A stretch of 15,649 bases of DNA from a virus. Shown piece by piece: positions 1 through 15,649 of the stretch; the first letter of the stretch is position 1, and each line of letters begins with the position of its first letter. The stretch lies in UHGV virus genome UHGV-0257549; one strand, given 5' to 3'. The notes beneath the pieces were generated by a model. That model was not told the origin of the DNA, did no database searches, and was given only the letters and a program-made list of their open reading frames with translations. The position numbers and the translations under genes are program-made.

Positions 1-474
1 CGTTTCAGTCGGTGTGGACAGTACAAAAGAGACACTGACCGCGCTCAGTTCGCTGCACTGCTCGATGCGCCAGCGGCTGATCACCTCCTGCTCCGGATCG
101 GCTTCGCTGTTTCCGTTGACGAAGTTCACCGCATCCAGAAAGCGGGCGTAAACCTTACGCCGGACCACCGTTCCTCCGACCAGACTCTGCAGGTCTTCCG
201 CCATCCCGGTGACCATGCCGTGCAGGTTAGAAACCGTCAGTGTCGGACGGGCAGCACTGCCCTTGCCGTTCATCTCAAATCCACTCCCCTGAATGGGATA
301 GGCCTGATACTGCCGACTCTGCCAGGTGACAGACTCACCTTTTTCGTTCTGCTCATTACAGAAAAAGTAGCGATCCCCGCCTACCTCGGTCAGGTCGATT
401 TCCCAGAGCACCACGCTGGCCGACTGCTCCGCACGGGTGCATTCATTCAGTGTTTCCTGCCGGATATCCTGCAT
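1..474 (-). CDS. L: Tail protein L (gpL), N-terminal 158 codons only; the 3' end runs off the window start
   Basis: Minus-strand ATG at 472-474 overlaps the M stop codon (ATGA coupling). The frame is open to position 1 and begins MQDIRQETLNECTRAEQS, which I recognise as the lambda gpL N-terminus. Position immediately downstream of M fits lambda gene order. Confidence 0.85.
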   Translation of the reverse strand, partial: MQDIRQETLNECTRAEQSASVVLWEIDLTEVGGDRYFFCNEQNEKGESVTWQSRQYQAYPIQGSGFEMNGKGSAARPTLTVSNLHGMVTGMAEDLQSLVGGTVVRRKVYARFLDAVNFVNGNSEADPEQEVISRWRIEQCSELSAVSVSFVLSTPTET

Positions 475-8768: not shown

Positions 8769-9482
8769 CCGGGACTGCAGTGTTTCCCGGACATCATCCG
8801 GTAGATGGCTGTAGGGGTTGCCATCCACCTTATGGCTGCCGCTGTAAATCAGCGTGATTTCCACGCCCTGTTTCTCCAGCGCAGCACCGTAATTACTGTG
8901 AGCCATCATGACGCCGATGGAGCCTGTCCGGGCGGTCTGCGTGACCAGACGTCGGGAGGCGGCGCTGGCAAGCAACTGACCTGCACTGCAGTTCATGTCG
9001 TTGGCCAGCGCCCATACCGGCTTTATGTCACGCACACGGGCGATGATGTCAGCGCAGTCAAATGCCCCTGCCACCATCCCGCCTGGCGTATCCATATCGA
9101 GCAGAATGCCGTCCACCATCGGGTCGCTGGCAGCCTGTTGCAGACGGGCGATAATGCCGTTGTAACCGGTCATCCCCGAATACGGCTGCAGCGCTCGCGT
9201 CCGACTGACCAGCGTGCCGGACACCGGCAGCACGGCGATGCCGTTCATGACCTGATAACTGCGGGCCTGTCGTGGTCCGTCATCATCAACGGATAACGCC
9301 AGCGCCGCGGGTGCCTCTCCGGCAGTCAGGCTGTCGCCGGATACCGCATCCGTCAGGCGGCTGATCCCAAGCTGGCCTGCAAGCGCACAAAAGAAAACCC
9401 GCGCATAGGCGGGTTCAAGCATCAGCGGCTCATTAAAGGCCATACTGGCAATATGCGGGAGATTACGCAGCTCTGCTGTCAC
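8163..9482 (-). CDS. C: Capsid assembly protease / prohead protease C (gpC), 439 aa, GTG start
   Basis: The track ORF (484 aa) extends upstream into B. A GTG at 9480-9482 preceded by GGAGGAG gives VTAELRNLPHIASMAF and 439 aa, the lambda gpC length. ClpP/S49-like protease region present. Overlaps the B 3' end by 20 nt. Confidence 0.88.
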   Translation of the reverse strand: MTAELRNLPHIASMAFNEPLMLEPAYARVFFCALAGQLGISRLTDAVSGDSLTAGEAPAALALSVDDDGPRQARSYQVMNGIAVLPVSGTLVSRTRALQPYSGMTGYNGIIARLQQAASDPMVDGILLDMDTPGGMVAGAFDCADIIARVRDIKPVWALANDMNCSAGQLLASAASRRLVTQTARTGSIGVMMAHSNYGAALEKQGVEITLIYSGSHKVDGNPYSHLPDDVRETLQSRMDATRRMFAQKVSAYTGLSVQAVLDTEAAVYSGQEAIDAGLADELVNSTDAITVMRDALDARKSRLSGGRMTKETQSTTVSATASQADVTGVVQATEGENASAAQPDVNAQITAAVAAENSRIMGILNCEEAHGREEQARVLAETPGMTVETARRILAAAPQSAQARSDTALDRLMQGAPAPLAAGNPASDAVNDLLNTPV

Positions 9483-10746
9483 TCTTCTCCTCCTCTGTTG
9501 ATTGTCGCAGCCCGGATTCAAATGCCGCAGCCGCCCAGGCGGGCGGTTTAAGACCGGCTGCACGGCGCTCCATCGTTTCACGGACCTGCTGGGCAAAAAT
9601 TTCCTGATAGTCGTCACCGCGTTTTGCGCACTCTTTCTCGTAGGTACTCAGTCCGGCTTCTATCAGCATCACCGCTTCCTGTACTTCTTTCAGACCATCG
9701 ATGGCCATACGACCGGAGCCTATCCAGTCGCAGTTCCCCCAGGCACTTCGGGCTTCCTGAAAACTGAAGCGCGCTTTTGAAGGTAACGTCACCACGCGGC
9801 GAACGATGGCCTCTTCCAGCCAGCACAGAAACATCTGGCTCGCCTGACGGGATGCGACGAATTTTCGCCGCCCCATAAAGTACGCCCACGACTCGTTCGC
9901 ACTGGCCCGTGCCGTGGAGTAGCTCATCTGGGCGTAATTCCGGGAAAGCTGCTCATACGAGACACCCAGCCCGGCAGCGATATACCGCAGCAGTGACTGC
10001 TCAAACACGGAGTAGCCGTTATCCGTATCCTGAGCCGTCTGCAGGTTCAGTGAGTCACCCGGCATCAGGTGCGGTACTTTTGCGCCTCCCAGCCGGACCG
10101 GCGCTGCGGCGTAATACGCGGCAATTTCACCAATCCAGCCGGTCAGCCTTTCCCGCTGCTCCTGACTGTTCGCGCCCAGAATAAAATCCATCGCTGACTG
10201 CGTATCCAGCTCACTCTCAATGGTGGCGGCATACATCGCCTTCACAATGGCGCTCTGCAGCTGCGTGTTCTGCAGCGTGTCGAGCATCTTCATCTGCTCC
10301 ATCACGCTGTAAAACACATTTGCACCGCGGGTCTGCCCGTCCTCCACGGGTTCAAAAACGTGAATGAACGAGGCGCGCCCGCCGGGTAACTCACGGGGTA
10401 TCCATGTCCATTTCTGCGGCATCCAGCCAGGATAGCCGTCCTCGCTGACGTAATATCCCAGCGACGCACCGCTGTCATTAATCTGCACACCGGCACGGCA
10501 GTTCCGGCTGTCGCCGGTATTGTTCGGGTTGCTGATGCGCTTCGGGCTGACCATCCGGAACTGTGTCCGGAAAAGCCGCGACGAACTGGTATCCCAGGTG
10601 GCCTGAACGAACAGTTCACCGTTAAAGGCGTGCATGGCCACACCTTCCCGAATCATCATGGTAAACGTGCGTTTTCGCTCAACGTCAATGCAGCAGCAGT
10701 CATCCTCGGCAAACTCTTTCCATGCCGCTTCAACCTCGCGGGAAAA
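9463..10746 (-). CDS. B: Portal protein gpB-derived segment of the fusion ORF (lacks its own N-terminal ~106 codons and start codon)
   Basis: C-terminal 427 aa of the fusion ORF match lambda gpB residues ~107-533 from memory. No W gene and no B initiation region are present upstream. Confidence 0.85.
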   Translation of the reverse strand, partial: FSREVEAAWKEFAEDDCCCIDVERKRTFTMMIREGVAMHAFNGELFVQATWDTSSSRLFRTQFRMVSPKRISNPNNTGDSRNCRAGVQINDSGASLGYYVSEDGYPGWMPQKWTWIPRELPGGRASFIHVFEPVEDGQTRGANVFYSVMEQMKMLDTLQNTQLQSAIVKAMYAATIESELDTQSAMDFILGANSQEQRERLTGWIGEIAAYYAAAPVRLGGAKVPHLMPGDSLNLQTAQDTDNGYSVFEQSLLRYIAAGLGVSYEQLSRNYAQMSYSTARASANESWAYFMGRRKFVASRQASQMFLCWLEEAIVRRVVTLPSKARFSFQEARSAWGNCDWIGSGRMAIDGLKEVQEAVMLIEAGLSTYEKECAKRGDDYQEIFAQQVRETMERRAAGLKPPAWAAAAFESGLRQSTEEEKSDSRAA

Positions 10747-12651
10747 GGCACGGGCGTAATCTGCCAGTGTTTTCTTGTTGGTTGCTGCACCATCCTCTTC
10801 CTGCAGGCTCGCCAGCAGTGCACTGAGATCCAGCTGCCAGCGGGAAATACTGATGCGCAGCGCCGCCAGCGCATAAACGAAGCAGTCGAGCGCCTCATTG
10901 CGTCGCTTTTTGCTGTCCCACAGTATTTTTTTCCTGCCATCCACCCATTTTTCGACCTGCTCTTCAGCAGTCAGCTGCTGCGCTTCGGTCAGATCAAAAA
11001 TATCCGGGTTATTCGGGAAGTGAACGGCACCGGGAAGCGGTTCATCCCCTTCCGGCGTCAGTGTGAAGCGGTTATAAATCTGCTCTTTCGCGGTATCCGT
11101 ACCGATTTCGGTAAGGTAAACCCCGTTTTTGTTTCGCTTACGAGGCATGCTGGCCACCGGCTTACCGTAGACGGATGCCCCTTTAATGGGGATCACCCGG
11201 AACAGCCCATGCTTTTTCGAGCGTTCATACACAATGGTCGGGTCAATCCCGCCAATATCCCAGCAGATACGGGATATCGACATTTCTGCACCATTCCGGC
11301 GGGTATAGGTTTTATTGATGGCCTCATCCACACGCAGCAGCGTCTGTTCATCGTCGTGGCGGCCCATAATAATCTGCCGGTCAATCAGCCAGCTTTCCTC
11401 ACCCGGCCCCCATCCCCATACGCGCATTTCGTAGCGATCCAGCTGGGAGTCGATACCGGCGGTCAGGTAAGTCACACGGTCAGGAACGGGCGCTGAATAA
11501 TGCTCTTTCCGCTCTGCCATCACTTCAGCATCCGGACGTTCGCCAATTTTCGCCTCCCACGTCTCACCGAGCGTGGTGTTTACGAAGGTTTTACGTTTTC
11601 CCGTATCCCCTTTCGTTTTCATCCAGTCTTTGACAATCTGCACCCAGGTGGTGAACGGGCTGTACGCCGTCCAGATGTGAAAGGTCACGCTGTCAGGCGG
11701 TTCAATCTCTTCACCGGATGACGAAAACCAGAGAATGCCATCACGGGTCCAGATCCCGGTCTTTTCGCAGATATAACGGGCATCAGTAAAGTCCAGCTCC
11801 TGCTGGCGGATGACGCAGGCATTATGCTCGCAGAGATAAAACACGCTGGAGGGGTCATCCGGCGTCCATTTGAGGCCAAACGGCGTCTCTTTGTCGCCAA
11901 ATTTAAGATACTGCTCCTCCCCGCAGTGCGGGCAGGCAACATGAAAACGCATAAAATGCGGGGATTCACTGGCTGCACGCTCAATCTGGCAGGTGCCTCT
12001 CACTTTGGGCGTGGAGCCACGGATGGACTTTGGCCAGACCGAGCCTTCAATACGTTTGTCGCCAAGGAACGTCGGAGAGCCTTCCTGTTCAATATCCTCA
12101 TCAAAGGCAGCAAGTTCATCATAACCCGCCACATCCACCGACTTTTCACGGTAGTTTTTTGCCGCTTTACCGCCCTGGCACCAGAAGCCACGACCATTGG
12201 AAAAACGCTTCATAGTGAGCGTGTTATCCCGGTGCTTTTTGCCATACCACGGAGCCAGCGCCAGCAGCGACGGAATATCGCGGATGGTCGGCTCAACGTG
12301 GGTTTTCATAAAGTTCTCGGCATCACCATCCGTCGGCAACCAGATAAGTGTGTTGCGCTGCTTATGCTCTATAAAGTAGGCATAAACACCCAGCAGCATT
12401 TTGGAATAACCGACACGGGCAGACTTCACCACATTCACCTCACGGATGTAGTCGCTGCCCATCGCATTCATGATGGCCCGCTGAAAGGGCAGTGTTTCCC
12501 AGCGCCCTTCCTGGTATGCGGATTCTTTCGGGAGATAGTAATTAGCATCCGCCCATTCAACGGCGGTCTGTGGCTCCGGCCTGAACAGTGAGCGAAGCCC
12601 GGCGCGGACAAAATGCCGCAGCCTGTTAACCTGACTGTTCGATATATTCAC
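9463..12651 (-). CDS. A: Fused terminase large subunit (gpA, residues ~1-635) and portal protein (gpB, from residue ~107) in one 1062-aa reading frame; gene W absent
   Basis: Single uninterrupted ORF 9463..12651 (-). The N-terminal ~635 aa are terminase large subunit (MNISNSQVNRLRHFVRAG..., Walker A-like KSARVGYSK). Sequence after ...KKTLADYARA continues directly as portal (FSREVEAAWKEFAEDDCCC... to acidic tail EEEKSDSRAA). The start overlaps Nu1 by 26 nt and the end overlaps C by 20 nt, as in lambda. Confidence 0.9.
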   Translation of the reverse strand: MNISNSQVNRLRHFVRAGLRSLFRPEPQTAVEWADANYYLPKESAYQEGRWETLPFQRAIMNAMGSDYIREVNVVKSARVGYSKMLLGVYAYFIEHKQRNTLIWLPTDGDAENFMKTHVEPTIRDIPSLLALAPWYGKKHRDNTLTMKRFSNGRGFWCQGGKAAKNYREKSVDVAGYDELAAFDEDIEQEGSPTFLGDKRIEGSVWPKSIRGSTPKVRGTCQIERAASESPHFMRFHVACPHCGEEQYLKFGDKETPFGLKWTPDDPSSVFYLCEHNACVIRQQELDFTDARYICEKTGIWTRDGILWFSSSGEEIEPPDSVTFHIWTAYSPFTTWVQIVKDWMKTKGDTGKRKTFVNTTLGETWEAKIGERPDAEVMAERKEHYSAPVPDRVTYLTAGIDSQLDRYEMRVWGWGPGEESWLIDRQIIMGRHDDEQTLLRVDEAINKTYTRRNGAEMSISRICWDIGGIDPTIVYERSKKHGLFRVIPIKGASVYGKPVASMPRKRNKNGVYLTEIGTDTAKEQIYNRFTLTPEGDEPLPGAVHFPNNPDIFDLTEAQQLTAEEQVEKWVDGRKKILWDSKKRRNEALDCFVYALAALRISISRWQLDLSALLASLQEEDGAATNKKTLADYARAFSREVEAAWKEFAEDDCCCIDVERKRTFTMMIREGVAMHAFNGELFVQATWDTSSSRLFRTQFRMVSPKRISNPNNTGDSRNCRAGVQINDSGASLGYYVSEDGYPGWMPQKWTWIPRELPGGRASFIHVFEPVEDGQTRGANVFYSVMEQMKMLDTLQNTQLQSAIVKAMYAATIESELDTQSAMDFILGANSQEQRERLTGWIGEIAAYYAAAPVRLGGAKVPHLMPGDSLNLQTAQDTDNGYSVFEQSLLRYIAAGLGVSYEQLSRNYAQMSYSTARASANESWAYFMGRRKFVASRQASQMFLCWLEEAIVRRVVTLPSKARFSFQEARSAWGNCDWIGSGRMAIDGLKEVQEAVMLIEAGLSTYEKECAKRGDDYQEIFAQQVRETMERRAAGLKPPAWAAAAFESGLRQSTEEEKSDSRAA

Positions 12652-13171
12652 TCAGCAACCCCGGTATCAGTTCATCCAGCGCGGCTGCTTTGTTCATGGC
12701 TTTGATGATATCCCGTTTCAGGAAATCAACATGTCGGTTTTCCAGTTCCGGAAAACGCCGCTGCACCGACAGGGGGATCCCGTCGAGAATACTGGCAATT
12801 TCACCTGCGATCCGCGACAGCACGAAAGTACAGAATGCGGTTTCCACCACTTCAGCGGAGTCTCTGGCATTTTTCAGCTCCTGTGCGTCGGCCTGCGCAC
12901 GCGTAAGTCGATGGCGTTCGTACTCAATAGTCCCTGGCTGGAGATCTGTCTCGCTGGCCTGCCGCAGTTCTTCAACTTCCCGGCGCAGCTTTTCGTTCTC
13001 AATTTCAGCATCCCTTTCGGCATACCATTTTATGACGGCGGCAGAATCATAAAGCACCTCATTACCCTTCCCACCACCCCGCAGAACGGGCATTCCCTGC
13101 TCCTGCCAGTTCTGAATGGTACGGATACTCGCGCCGAAAATGTCAGCCAGCTGCTTTTTGTTGACTTCCAT
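12626..13171 (-). CDS. Nu1: Terminase small subunit Nu1 (gpNu1), 181 aa
   Basis: ORF 12626..13171 (-), 181 aa, MEVNKKQLADIFGASIRTIQNWQEQGMPVLRGGGKGNEV (winged helix-turn-helix at the N-terminus). Lies immediately adjacent to cosB. Confidence 0.95.
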   Translation of the reverse strand: MEVNKKQLADIFGASIRTIQNWQEQGMPVLRGGGKGNEVLYDSAAVIKWYAERDAEIENEKLRREVEELRQASETDLQPGTIEYERHRLTRAQADAQELKNARDSAEVVETAFCTFVLSRIAGEIASILDGIPLSVQRRFPELENRHVDFLKRDIIKAMNKAAALDELIPGLLSEYIEQSG

Positions 13172-13196
13172 TGTTCATTCCACGGACAAAAACAGA

Positions 13197-13312
13197 GAAA
13201 GGAAACGACAGAGGCCAAAAAGCCCGTTTTCAGCACCTGTCGTTTCCTTTCTTTTCAGGGGGTGTTTTAAATAAAAACATTAAGTTATGACGAAGAAGAA
13301 CGGAAACGCCTT
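13197..13312. repeat. cosB: three gpNu1-binding R elements (core GGAAACG / CGTTTCC) with intervening IHF-site region
   Basis: R1-like ggaaacgacag at 13201..13211, R2-like inverted ctgtcgtttcc at 13238..13248, R3-like cggaaacgcc at 13301..13310. Spacing and orientation match the lambda cosB layout. Confidence 0.75.
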
Positions 13313-13348
13313 AAACCGGAAAATTTTCATAAATAGCGAAAACCCGAG

Positions 13349-13360
13349 AGATCGCCGCCC
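13349..13360. other. cosN cohesive-end sequence (joined form); 12-nt overhang region
   Basis: Plus strand agatcgccgccc is the reverse complement of GGGCGGCGATCT. This equals the lambda cohesive end GGGCGGCGACCT except for one base, by my recollection. Flanked by right-end sequence ...cgtaacctgtcggatc. Confidence 0.75.
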
Positions 13361-13395
13361 CGTAACCTGTCGGATCGCCGGAAAGGACCCGCAAA

Positions 13396-13412
13396 ATGAT
13401 AATAATTATCAT
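13396..13412. repeat. Perfect 17-bp palindrome atgataat-a-attatcat near the cosQ side of cos
   Basis: 8-bp inverted repeat with 1-nt spacer, read directly from the sequence. Function unknown (possible protein-binding site). Confidence 0.5.
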
Positions 13413-13559
13413 CTACATGTCACAACGTGCATCTACGCCATCAAACCACGTCAAATAATCAATTATGACGCAGGTATCGTATTAATTGATCTGCATCAAC
13501 TTAACGTAAAAACAACTTCAGACAATACAAATCAGCGACACTGAATACGGGGCAACCTC

Positions 13560-13754
13560 ATGTCAACGAAGAACAGAACCCGCAGAACAACAACCCGCAA
13601 CATCCGCTTTCCTAACCAAATGATTGAACAAATTAACATCGCTCTTGAGCAAAAAGGGTCCGGGAATTTCTCAGCCTGGGTCATTGAAGCCTGCCGTCGG
13701 AGACTAACGTCAGAAAAGAGAGCATATACATCAATTAAAAGTGATGAAGAATGA
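13560..13754 (+). CDS. Small basic protein, 64 aa, YlcI/DUF3950-like with predicted ribbon-helix-helix DNA-binding fold
   Basis: ORF with ATG at 13560 preceded by GGGG about 8 nt upstream. Arg/Thr-rich N-terminal arm, then IRFPNQMIEQINIALEQKG..FSAWVIEACRRRL, a typical beta-strand/helix/helix RHH pattern. The equivalent position in E. coli cryptic prophages holds a similar small gene (ylcI), from memory. Confidence 0.6.
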   Translation: MSTKNRTRRTTTRNIRFPNQMIEQINIALEQKGSGNFSAWVIEACRRRLTSEKRAYTSIKSDEE

Positions 13755-15111: not shown

Positions 15112-15405
15112 ATGAAAAAAATGCTACTCGCTACTGCGCTGGCCCTGCTTATTACAGGATGTGCTCAACAGACGTTTACTGTTCAAAACAAACCGGCAGC
15201 AGTAGCACCAAAGGAAACCATCACCCATCATTTCTTCGTTTCTGGAATTGGGCAGAAGAAAACTGTCGATGCAGCCAAAATTTGTGGCGGCGCAGAAAAT
15301 GTTGTTAAAACAGAAACCCAGCAAACATTCGTAAATGGATTGCTCGGTTTTATTACTTTAGGCATTTATACTCCGCTGGAAGCGCGTGTGTATTGCTCAC
15401 AATAA
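15112..15405 (+). CDS. bor: Bor outer-membrane lipoprotein (serum resistance, lysogenic conversion), 97 aa
   Basis: MKKMLLATALALLITGCAQQ: signal peptide with lipobox LITG-C. Sequence matches lambda Bor from memory. ATG at 15112 is preceded by an AGGGAATAACACC region. Confidence 0.92.
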   Translation: MKKMLLATALALLITGCAQQTFTVQNKPAAVAPKETITHHFFVSGIGQKKTVDAAKICGGAENVVKTETQQTFVNGLLGFITLGIYTPLEARVYCSQ

Positions 15406-15436: not shown

Positions 15437-15649
15437 CTATCTGCACTGCTCATTAATATACTTCTGGGTTCCTTCCAGTTGTTTTTGCATAGTGATCAGC
15501 CTCTCTCTGAGGGTGAAATAATCCCGTTCAGCGGTGTCTGCCAGTCGGGGGGAGGCTGCATTATCCACGCCGGAGGCGGTGGTGGCTTCACGCACTGACT
15601 GACAGACTGCTTTGATGTGCAACCGACGACGACCAGCGGCAACATCATC
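15437..15649 (-). CDS. Rz: Spanin inner-membrane subunit Rz, C-terminal part; the 5' end lies beyond the window end
   Basis: Minus-strand frame open to the window edge, ending ...HIKAVCQSVREATTASGVDNAASPRLADTAERDYFTLRERLITMQKQLEGTQKYINEQCR; matches the lambda Rz C-terminus from memory. Confidence 0.85.
   Translation of the reverse strand, partial: DDVAAGRRRLHIKAVCQSVREATTASGVDNAASPRLADTAERDYFTLRERLITMQKQLEGTQKYINEQCR
15495..15649 (-). CDS. Rz1: Spanin outer-membrane lipoprotein Rz1, embedded in the +1 frame of Rz; N-terminus truncated by the window edge
   Basis: Manual translation of the minus strand gives MMLPLVVVGCTSKQSVSQCVKPPPPPAWIMQPPPDWQTPLNGIISPSERG with stop at 15495-15497. Lipobox VVG-C and proline-rich stretch are typical of Rz1. 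Absent from the ORF track, probably on length. Confidence 0.8.

Follow-up and report, generated by a model that had tools for sequence, protein, structure and literature searches.

The window, the whole stretch of 15,649 nucleotides analysed here (UHGV virus genome UHGV-0257549), is collinear with phage lambda in inverted orientation and about 97.5% identical to it over its entire length. Its gene order runs from tail gene L through H and the head genes to Nu1, cos and the lambda right end, of which a YlcI-like ORF, ybcV/ybcW-like ORFs, bor and the 3' end of Rz are present. Flanked by Nu1 on one side and by this right end on the other, a complete lambda-type cos comprising cosQ, cosN, I2, R3, I1, R2 and R1 occupies positions 13196..13390 of the minus strand in the joined state (Table 1). 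Nu1 lies directly downstream of cosB, starting approximately 190 bp from the cohesive end, and precisely this protein is extremely common in E. coli. Since cos is interior and continuous in the window, as it also is in two independently assembled contigs from this lineage (see below), the DNA represents the joined form and not the virion form. An earlier note on this DNA had drawn the same conclusion from the contiguity of Nu1 and the right end, and the artificial joining of contig ends that it named as the contrary case is contradicted by all three sequences.

Table 1. Features of the cos region and of the adjoining packaging and right-end genes. Positions are those of the window; bp numbers are those of lambda.
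Feature	Position	Strand	Remarks
A-B deletion junction	10745..10755	-	sole remaining copy of the 11-bp repeat, GCCCGTGCCTT; comparison with lambda
gpA-gpB fusion	9463..12651	-	gpA 1-635 and gpB 107-533 in frame, 1062 aa; ORF, alignment, Pfam
Nu1 (TerS)	12626..13171	-	181 aa, intact; ATG at 13171
cosB R1	13196..13211	-	same as lambda
R2-R1 spacer	13212..13236	-	GAGGC..GCCTC stem of reference lambda shortened to GGGC..GCCTC
cosB R2, inverted	13237..13252	+	CTGTCGTTTCCTTTCT on the plus strand of the window; same as lambda
I1 (IHF) region	13253..13295	-	between R3 and R2; two changes relative to lambda (13264, 13259)
cosB R3	13296..13311	-	TerS binding site, bp 50-65; same as lambda; PMC9026076
I2 segment	13311..13343	-	bp 18-50; no difference from lambda; definition from PMC4856287
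cosN core	13347..13362	-	CG/GGGCGGCGATCT/CT, bp -2..14; site definition from PMC9026076
12-nt cohesive-end sequence	13349..13360	-	GGGCGGCGATCT; lambda, GGGCGGCGACCT
G14T	13347	-	conserved CG to the right of the nick becomes CT
C10T	13351	-	lineage-private substitution; makes a GATC (Dam) site at bp 8-11
cosQ heptamer	13384..13390	-	GGGTCCT, lambda bp -30..-24; same as lambda; direct reading and alignment
YlcI/YnfO-family ORF	13560..13754	+	lambda right end; ORF and comparison
bor	15112..15405	+	97 aa; ORF and comparison
Rz, 3' part	15437..15649	-	cut by the window end; comparison with lambda

For comparison with the reference phage, the region was aligned to NC_001416 with its ends joined (48353..48502 followed by 1..260). 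Identity across cos was 96.5% over 461 bp, which is far beyond chance, and the order, orientation and spacing of the subsites are alike in lambda (cosQ at 48473-48479, Nu1 at 191) and in the window, with no indel between cosN and R3. With these values across cos and over the whole window, the element is a close relative of lambda and not the reference phage itself, as the earlier note had held, and the region is not base-identical to the reference. The cohesive end, which was given there as one base away from that of lambda, reads AGATCGCCGCCC on the plus strand of the window, and the alignment places the single difference at bp 10 (C>T). Nicking is predicted between 13361 and 13360 on the top strand and between 13349 and 13348 on the bottom strand. 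A second cosN difference lies at bp 14 (G>T), and both changes are at two-fold-symmetric positions, so that 6 of the 16 bp of cosN are symmetric in the window against 10 of 16 in lambda. Outside cosN, the window departs from lambda in I1 at bp 97 (T>C, 13264) and bp 102 (T>C, 13259), in the R2-R1 spacer at bp 134 (G>A, 13227) with one base fewer at bp 137 (13225), and at nine positions on the right-end side of cos (13377..13436). A further difference from lambda is that the terminase of the window is fused to a portal fragment (see below).

Eleven of the 12 cohesive-end bases, cosQ at the lambda spacing, the R3, I1, R2 and R1 elements together with I2, and Nu1 place the site among the lambda-type cos sites. 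Of the CG dinucleotides that flank the nicks, the left one is present and the right one is CT owing to G14T; since this allele occurs in 227 E. coli genomes, it is a natural deviation and gives no reason to exclude the site from that class. A PICI-type cos, which consists of cosQ-cosN with rpp and is without R sites, was considered and rejected, as a full lambda cosB and Nu1 are present. The small hairpin that the earlier note had described for the lambda spacer is indeed found in NC_001416 at bp 135-150 (GAGGC-TTTTTG-GCCTC) and is altered in the window (GGGC-TTTTTG-GCCTC). Resequenced lambda (PV340536), DE3 and all relatives examined have one G fewer than NC_001416 in GAGGC, so that NC_001416 is the odd one out in the spacer, either because the base is particular to that strain or because of a sequencing difference of long standing.

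The changes that the earlier note had remarked close to cosN and in the spacer are present (bp 14 and the spacer), but other phages and prophages have them too. When ten phage relatives were compared, bp 10 and bp 14 were the only positions at which the window stood alone. Within I1, the changes at 13264 and 13259 are common to an Stx1 phage (Stx1a) and PhiR47_2, and the spacer changes at 13227 and 13224/5 to 2H10, Stx1_9793 and PhiR47_2; the cosB, I1 and spacer changes are shared polymorphisms. A 39-mer query able to seed only on T14 picked out 227 of 5,426 complete E. coli genomes (about 4%) but none of 50,697 phage records, and G14T is therefore a pre-existing minority natural allele of E. 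coli prophages (an example lies at 16198..16225 of the relative L011). The best-matching complete E. coli genomes were 99.6% identical over 461 bp with T14 already in place. The T14-type cos of strains Z1322HEC0001 (NZ_CP148583.1) and 120899 (NZ_CP025916.1) carries G14T together with all of the cosB, I1 and spacer alleles of the window, and differs from it only at bp 10, which is C, and at 13288, which is G in place of the base that the window shares with lambda. The T14-type cos is evidently the parental allele of the window cos. In the prophage of Z1322HEC0001, the one T14 prophage examined in full, A, W and B are intact.

In the window, by contrast with lambda, 539 bp are missing between two 11-bp direct repeats, which lambda has at the 3' end of A and within B, 539 bp apart. 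Lost with this segment are gene W, the final 6 codons of gpA and the first 106 codons of portal B, and what is left is an in-frame fusion with Pfam matches to GpA_ATPase, GpA_nuclease and Phage_portal_2. The remaining head and tail genes in the window are all open. A complete terminase large subunit, gpW and portal, by which an intact prophage would be recognised, are not found; both gpW and the portal are essential components of the lambda head. The C-terminal domain of TerL is known to dock on the portal (PMC9026076). Since W, the portal N-terminus and the C-terminal tip of TerL have all been lost, the element cannot package its own DNA or fill heads alone. The earlier note named an integrated prophage as one possible form but missed the deletion that makes the element packaging-defective; given this defect, a defective prophage is the right context for the site, and neutral drift is the simplest reading of C10T.

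The exact 1062-aa fusion protein was found on two other contigs. One of them, ENA UPWK01001047 (L016), is a 22.9-kb human gut metagenome contig that is 99.93% identical to the window (11 SNPs), and the other is a 13.6-kb contig from the Logan assembly of ERR998776, 99.96% identical (5 SNPs). Both read GATCTCT, that is T10 and T14, and both have the deletion. An identical deletion junction is present in E. coli STEC388 (NZ_CP041425.1), in a decayed prophage at the DLP12 locus. The A gene of this remnant is nearly the same as that of the window, with 13 SNPs in 2.7 kb (0.5%), whereas its cos/Nu1-proximal 0.7 kb is 3.9% diverged and its cosN is canonical (C10, G14); its fusion ORF has been further truncated by an IS66 element and its head and tail genes are gone. 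The disparity between the two divergence values indicates that the cos region has been exchanged by recombination, and because of this recombination the comparison with STEC388 gives no order for C10T and the deletion. The deletion allele was either shared by descent with STEC388 or arose recurrently at the microhomology. Towards the right end, nothing in the STEC388 prophage corresponds to segment 13771..15055 of the window, which lies between the ylcI-like ORF and bor and, as in lambda, has ybcV/ybcW-like ORFs; the bor region of that prophage is only 94% identical, indicating mosaicism around the right end.

The genes for int/xis, immunity and replication and the sites attL/attR lie outside the window. 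The prophage reading rests instead on the defective state of the element, on the chromosomal location of all of its close relatives and on the deletion allele shared with STEC388. In UPWK01001047 the lysis genes adjoin host murB-birA-coaA-thrU-tyrU-glyT, with the host crossover falling within approximately 70 identical bases of tRNA-Gly, and this junction of a lysis gene with the coaA-tRNA region was found in no complete genome. Upstream of the holin, lambdoid prophages have their own genes for tRNA-Thr and tRNA-Gly, which differ very little from host thrU and glyT, and a comparison of L016:3440..4200 with L028:8900..9500 shows that in L016 the host coaA-thrU-tyrU-glyT sequence meets the phage holin region inside tRNA-Gly. 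The junction may represent either a real recombination or an assembly chimera, and was set aside as a prophage boundary.

C10T is much rarer than G14T. In 3,357 complete E. coli genomes, none of the 5,348 copies of a lambda-type cos matched the 59-mer of the window. A T10-dependent 39-mer with the G14 background seeded in one of 5,426 E. coli genomes, at a PICI, and in none of 50,697 phage records. An exact-pattern scan of IMG/VR for the T10 cosN returned no matches, and a scan of GTDB species representatives returned no enterobacterial match; a looser T10 pattern gave six GTDB matches in Streptomyces, Rhodococcus and other high-GC genomes, which were judged to be chance. The only contig recovered by a metagenome scan for the T10 cosN was UPWK01001047, already found via the fusion protein. 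T10 was thus found only in the window lineage (three sequences) and, independently, in one PICI. Within the lineage C10T is real and inherited. Deamination at a Dcm site was rejected as its source, the context being GACCTC and not CCWGG.

The PICI is located next to clpS in E. coli 51489 (NZ_CM135151.1; L030:8960..9060) and has the same GGGCGGCGATCT with the same cosQ spacing as the window. It differs from the window in that its cohesive-end sequence is followed by CG (G14), in being without the lambda R sites and in having a different small-terminase-like gene downstream. The island has genes for int, primase, SSB, capsid, decoration and small-terminase-like proteins. Its T10 is therefore of independent origin.

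The rate of private change in the lineage provides a background for C10T. Over about 10.4 kb we counted 24 substitutions that are private to the lineage (10 nonsynonymous, 13 synonymous and 1 intergenic). At this rate the non-coding cos region of 389 bp would be expected to contain approximately 0.9 such change, and one was observed. C10T, as one of the 24 private changes, therefore fits the background. The private nonsynonymous to synonymous ratio of 10:13 (0.77) against 0.40 among intact relatives leans towards relaxed selection, but this is a non-significant trend (Fisher p = 0.16, with pooled pairs that are not independent) and was not used as evidence. In residues 1-635, gpA has five substitutions relative to lambda, of which L159Q (12176) and A394T (11472, near the start of the nuclease region) are lineage-private; A730S in the portal part (fusion numbering; 10464) is also private to the fusion lineage. 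At none of these three residues is there any variation among 11 intact gpA or gpB homologues, and their replacement is compatible with drift after inactivation. None of the five gpA substitutions shows evidence of a link to the cosN change. The A gene also contains four synonymous SNPs within 34 bp (11668, 11689, 11698 and 11701) that separate the window from L016, the ERR998776 contig, STEC388, lambda and L011, and of these only the C at 11689 has no parallel in any of the 13 relatives compared; the stretch looks as if a short tract had been acquired by gene conversion from a different lambdoid copy.

What is known of cosN variation, for which we rely on PMC4669245 and PMC9026076, indicates that bp 10 lies in a tolerant part of the site. 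The 5'-CG-3' flanking the nicks has been described by the Feiss laboratory as highly conserved. Functionally, cosN is asymmetric, changes at bp 7-12 having a minimal effect on cleavage (PMC4669245). C11G had no phenotype, whereas the symmetric G2C carried a 10-fold cost, and bp 7-12 vary naturally in N15 and gifsy-1 and were judged not to be under strong selection (PMC4669245). The lambda and N15 terminases show no cosN specificity (PMC4669245). We found no published test of a bp-10 mutation, and bp 10 is not listed among the variant positions of N15 (bp 9, 12) and Gifsy-1 (bp 8, 9, 11). These variants are the cohesive ends of viable phages with diverged terminases, whereas the element of the window is defective.

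We consider it probable, at roughly 0.8, that the site is the cos of a lambda-family E. coli prophage that has become packaging-defective, left uncut in double-stranded DNA like the cos of any integrated prophage, and that C10T is a near-neutral change and not a change of specificity. In lambda, IHF bends the DNA at I1 and TerS occupies R3, R2 and R1 about this bend; two nicks 12 bp apart are made by TerL protomers that sit symmetrically on cosN, and cosQ is needed for packaging termination (PMC9026076, PMC4856287). The near-identity of the window to lambda suggests that its Nu1 would likewise be bound at the three R sites around a bend at I1 and would place gpA on cosN to make the two nicks, and that cosQ would serve termination. 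A microhomology-mediated deletion of 539 bp took out W, the N-terminal part of the portal and the tip of TerL that docks on the portal, fusing TerL to the portal remnant, and C10T is a private C-to-T transition on a pre-existing G14T background. Since the right half of cosN tolerates mutation and the site is no longer needed by its own phage, C10T would be near-neutral. A terminase of lambda specificity supplied in trans would probably still cut the GGGCGGCGATCT site. The combination of C10T and G14T may have an effect on nicking, as both are at symmetric positions and G14T falls in the conserved nick-flanking CG. The absence of T14 from deposited phage genomes is counted against our explanation, since it may bear on the neutrality of T14.

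That the T at bp 10, or the joined cos with the deletion, or both, arose from sequencing or assembly error has next to no probability. The ends of cos phages are known for assembly errors and the host junction of UPWK01001047 may be chimeric, but T10, T14 and the deletion are found together in three independently assembled sequences that are 5-11 SNPs apart, the deletion junction recurs in the complete genome of STEC388, and cos is interior in all the sequences. It is also very unlikely that the site is a functional specificity variant, that is, a distinct cohesive-end type with a terminase co-evolved to nick a GATCT-type cosN. The fall in symmetry from 10 to 6 of the 16 bp through two changed positions, the two lineage-private substitutions in gpA and the stable inheritance of the allele in three sequences would suit such a variant. 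However, an element missing W, an intact portal and the TerL C-terminus is no propagating phage, right-half cosN changes are tolerated by the lambda and N15 terminases (PMC4669245), the private gpA changes are explained equally by drift, and T10 was in no intact phage or prophage of the E. coli genomes, phage records and IMG/VR searched. The earlier note had pointed out that changes at cosN can affect nicking specificity; for this element the suggestion is not supported, as the element is defective, the right half of cosN is tolerant and no gpA change shows evidence of a link to cosN. A functionally distinct cosN could be envisaged in which C10T and G14T together expose a GATC within the cohesive end to Dam methylation and take away 4 of the 10 symmetric bp, making nicking methylation-sensitive or asymmetric. 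In other forms of this idea, mismatched cohesive ends would keep the element partly apart from canonical lambdoid helpers, or the in-frame TerL-portal fusion would be a retained functional protein and not debris. Even taken jointly, we regard these forms as remote.

Use of cos in trans, where the lambda-specificity terminase of a lambdoid helper, either co-resident or infecting, would cut the site and mobilise the element or adjacent DNA, with T10 tolerated under some selection, is unlikely but deserves more weight. It would be consistent with cosQ, I2 and all three R sites being the same as in lambda and with the intact Nu1, and passive prophages were packaged by helpers in the experiments of the Feiss laboratory (PMC4669245). 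The independent T10 in a helper-dependent PICI also suggests that T10 is compatible with cutting, although that case is one genome in 5,426. Mobilisation would need a second cos about one genome length downstream, and there is none in the 15.6-kb window or the 22.9-kb contig. A mismatch with canonical helper ends would also cut the yield, which falls about 4-fold with two cohesive-end mismatches (PMC4669245), and excision and replication functions are not evidenced.

On the reading we prefer, a defective prophage with a near-neutral C10T, the finding is an additional allele of a site already known in detail, borne by an unexceptional prophage in decay, and offers one data point on the natural history of cosN. 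In practical terms, the prophage from which the window derives is a defective one, and the packaging genes should be checked for integrity before a cos variant is read as a change of specificity. Among the approximately 5,300 copies of a lambda-type cos in complete E. coli genomes, the 12-nt cohesive end shows practically no variation, and T10 alleles were found only in a packaging-defective prophage lineage and one helper-dependent island. This pattern fits a cohesive end that is held constant in working phages, even though right-half cosN changes barely affect cutting, perhaps via the cost of mismatched ends after recombination.
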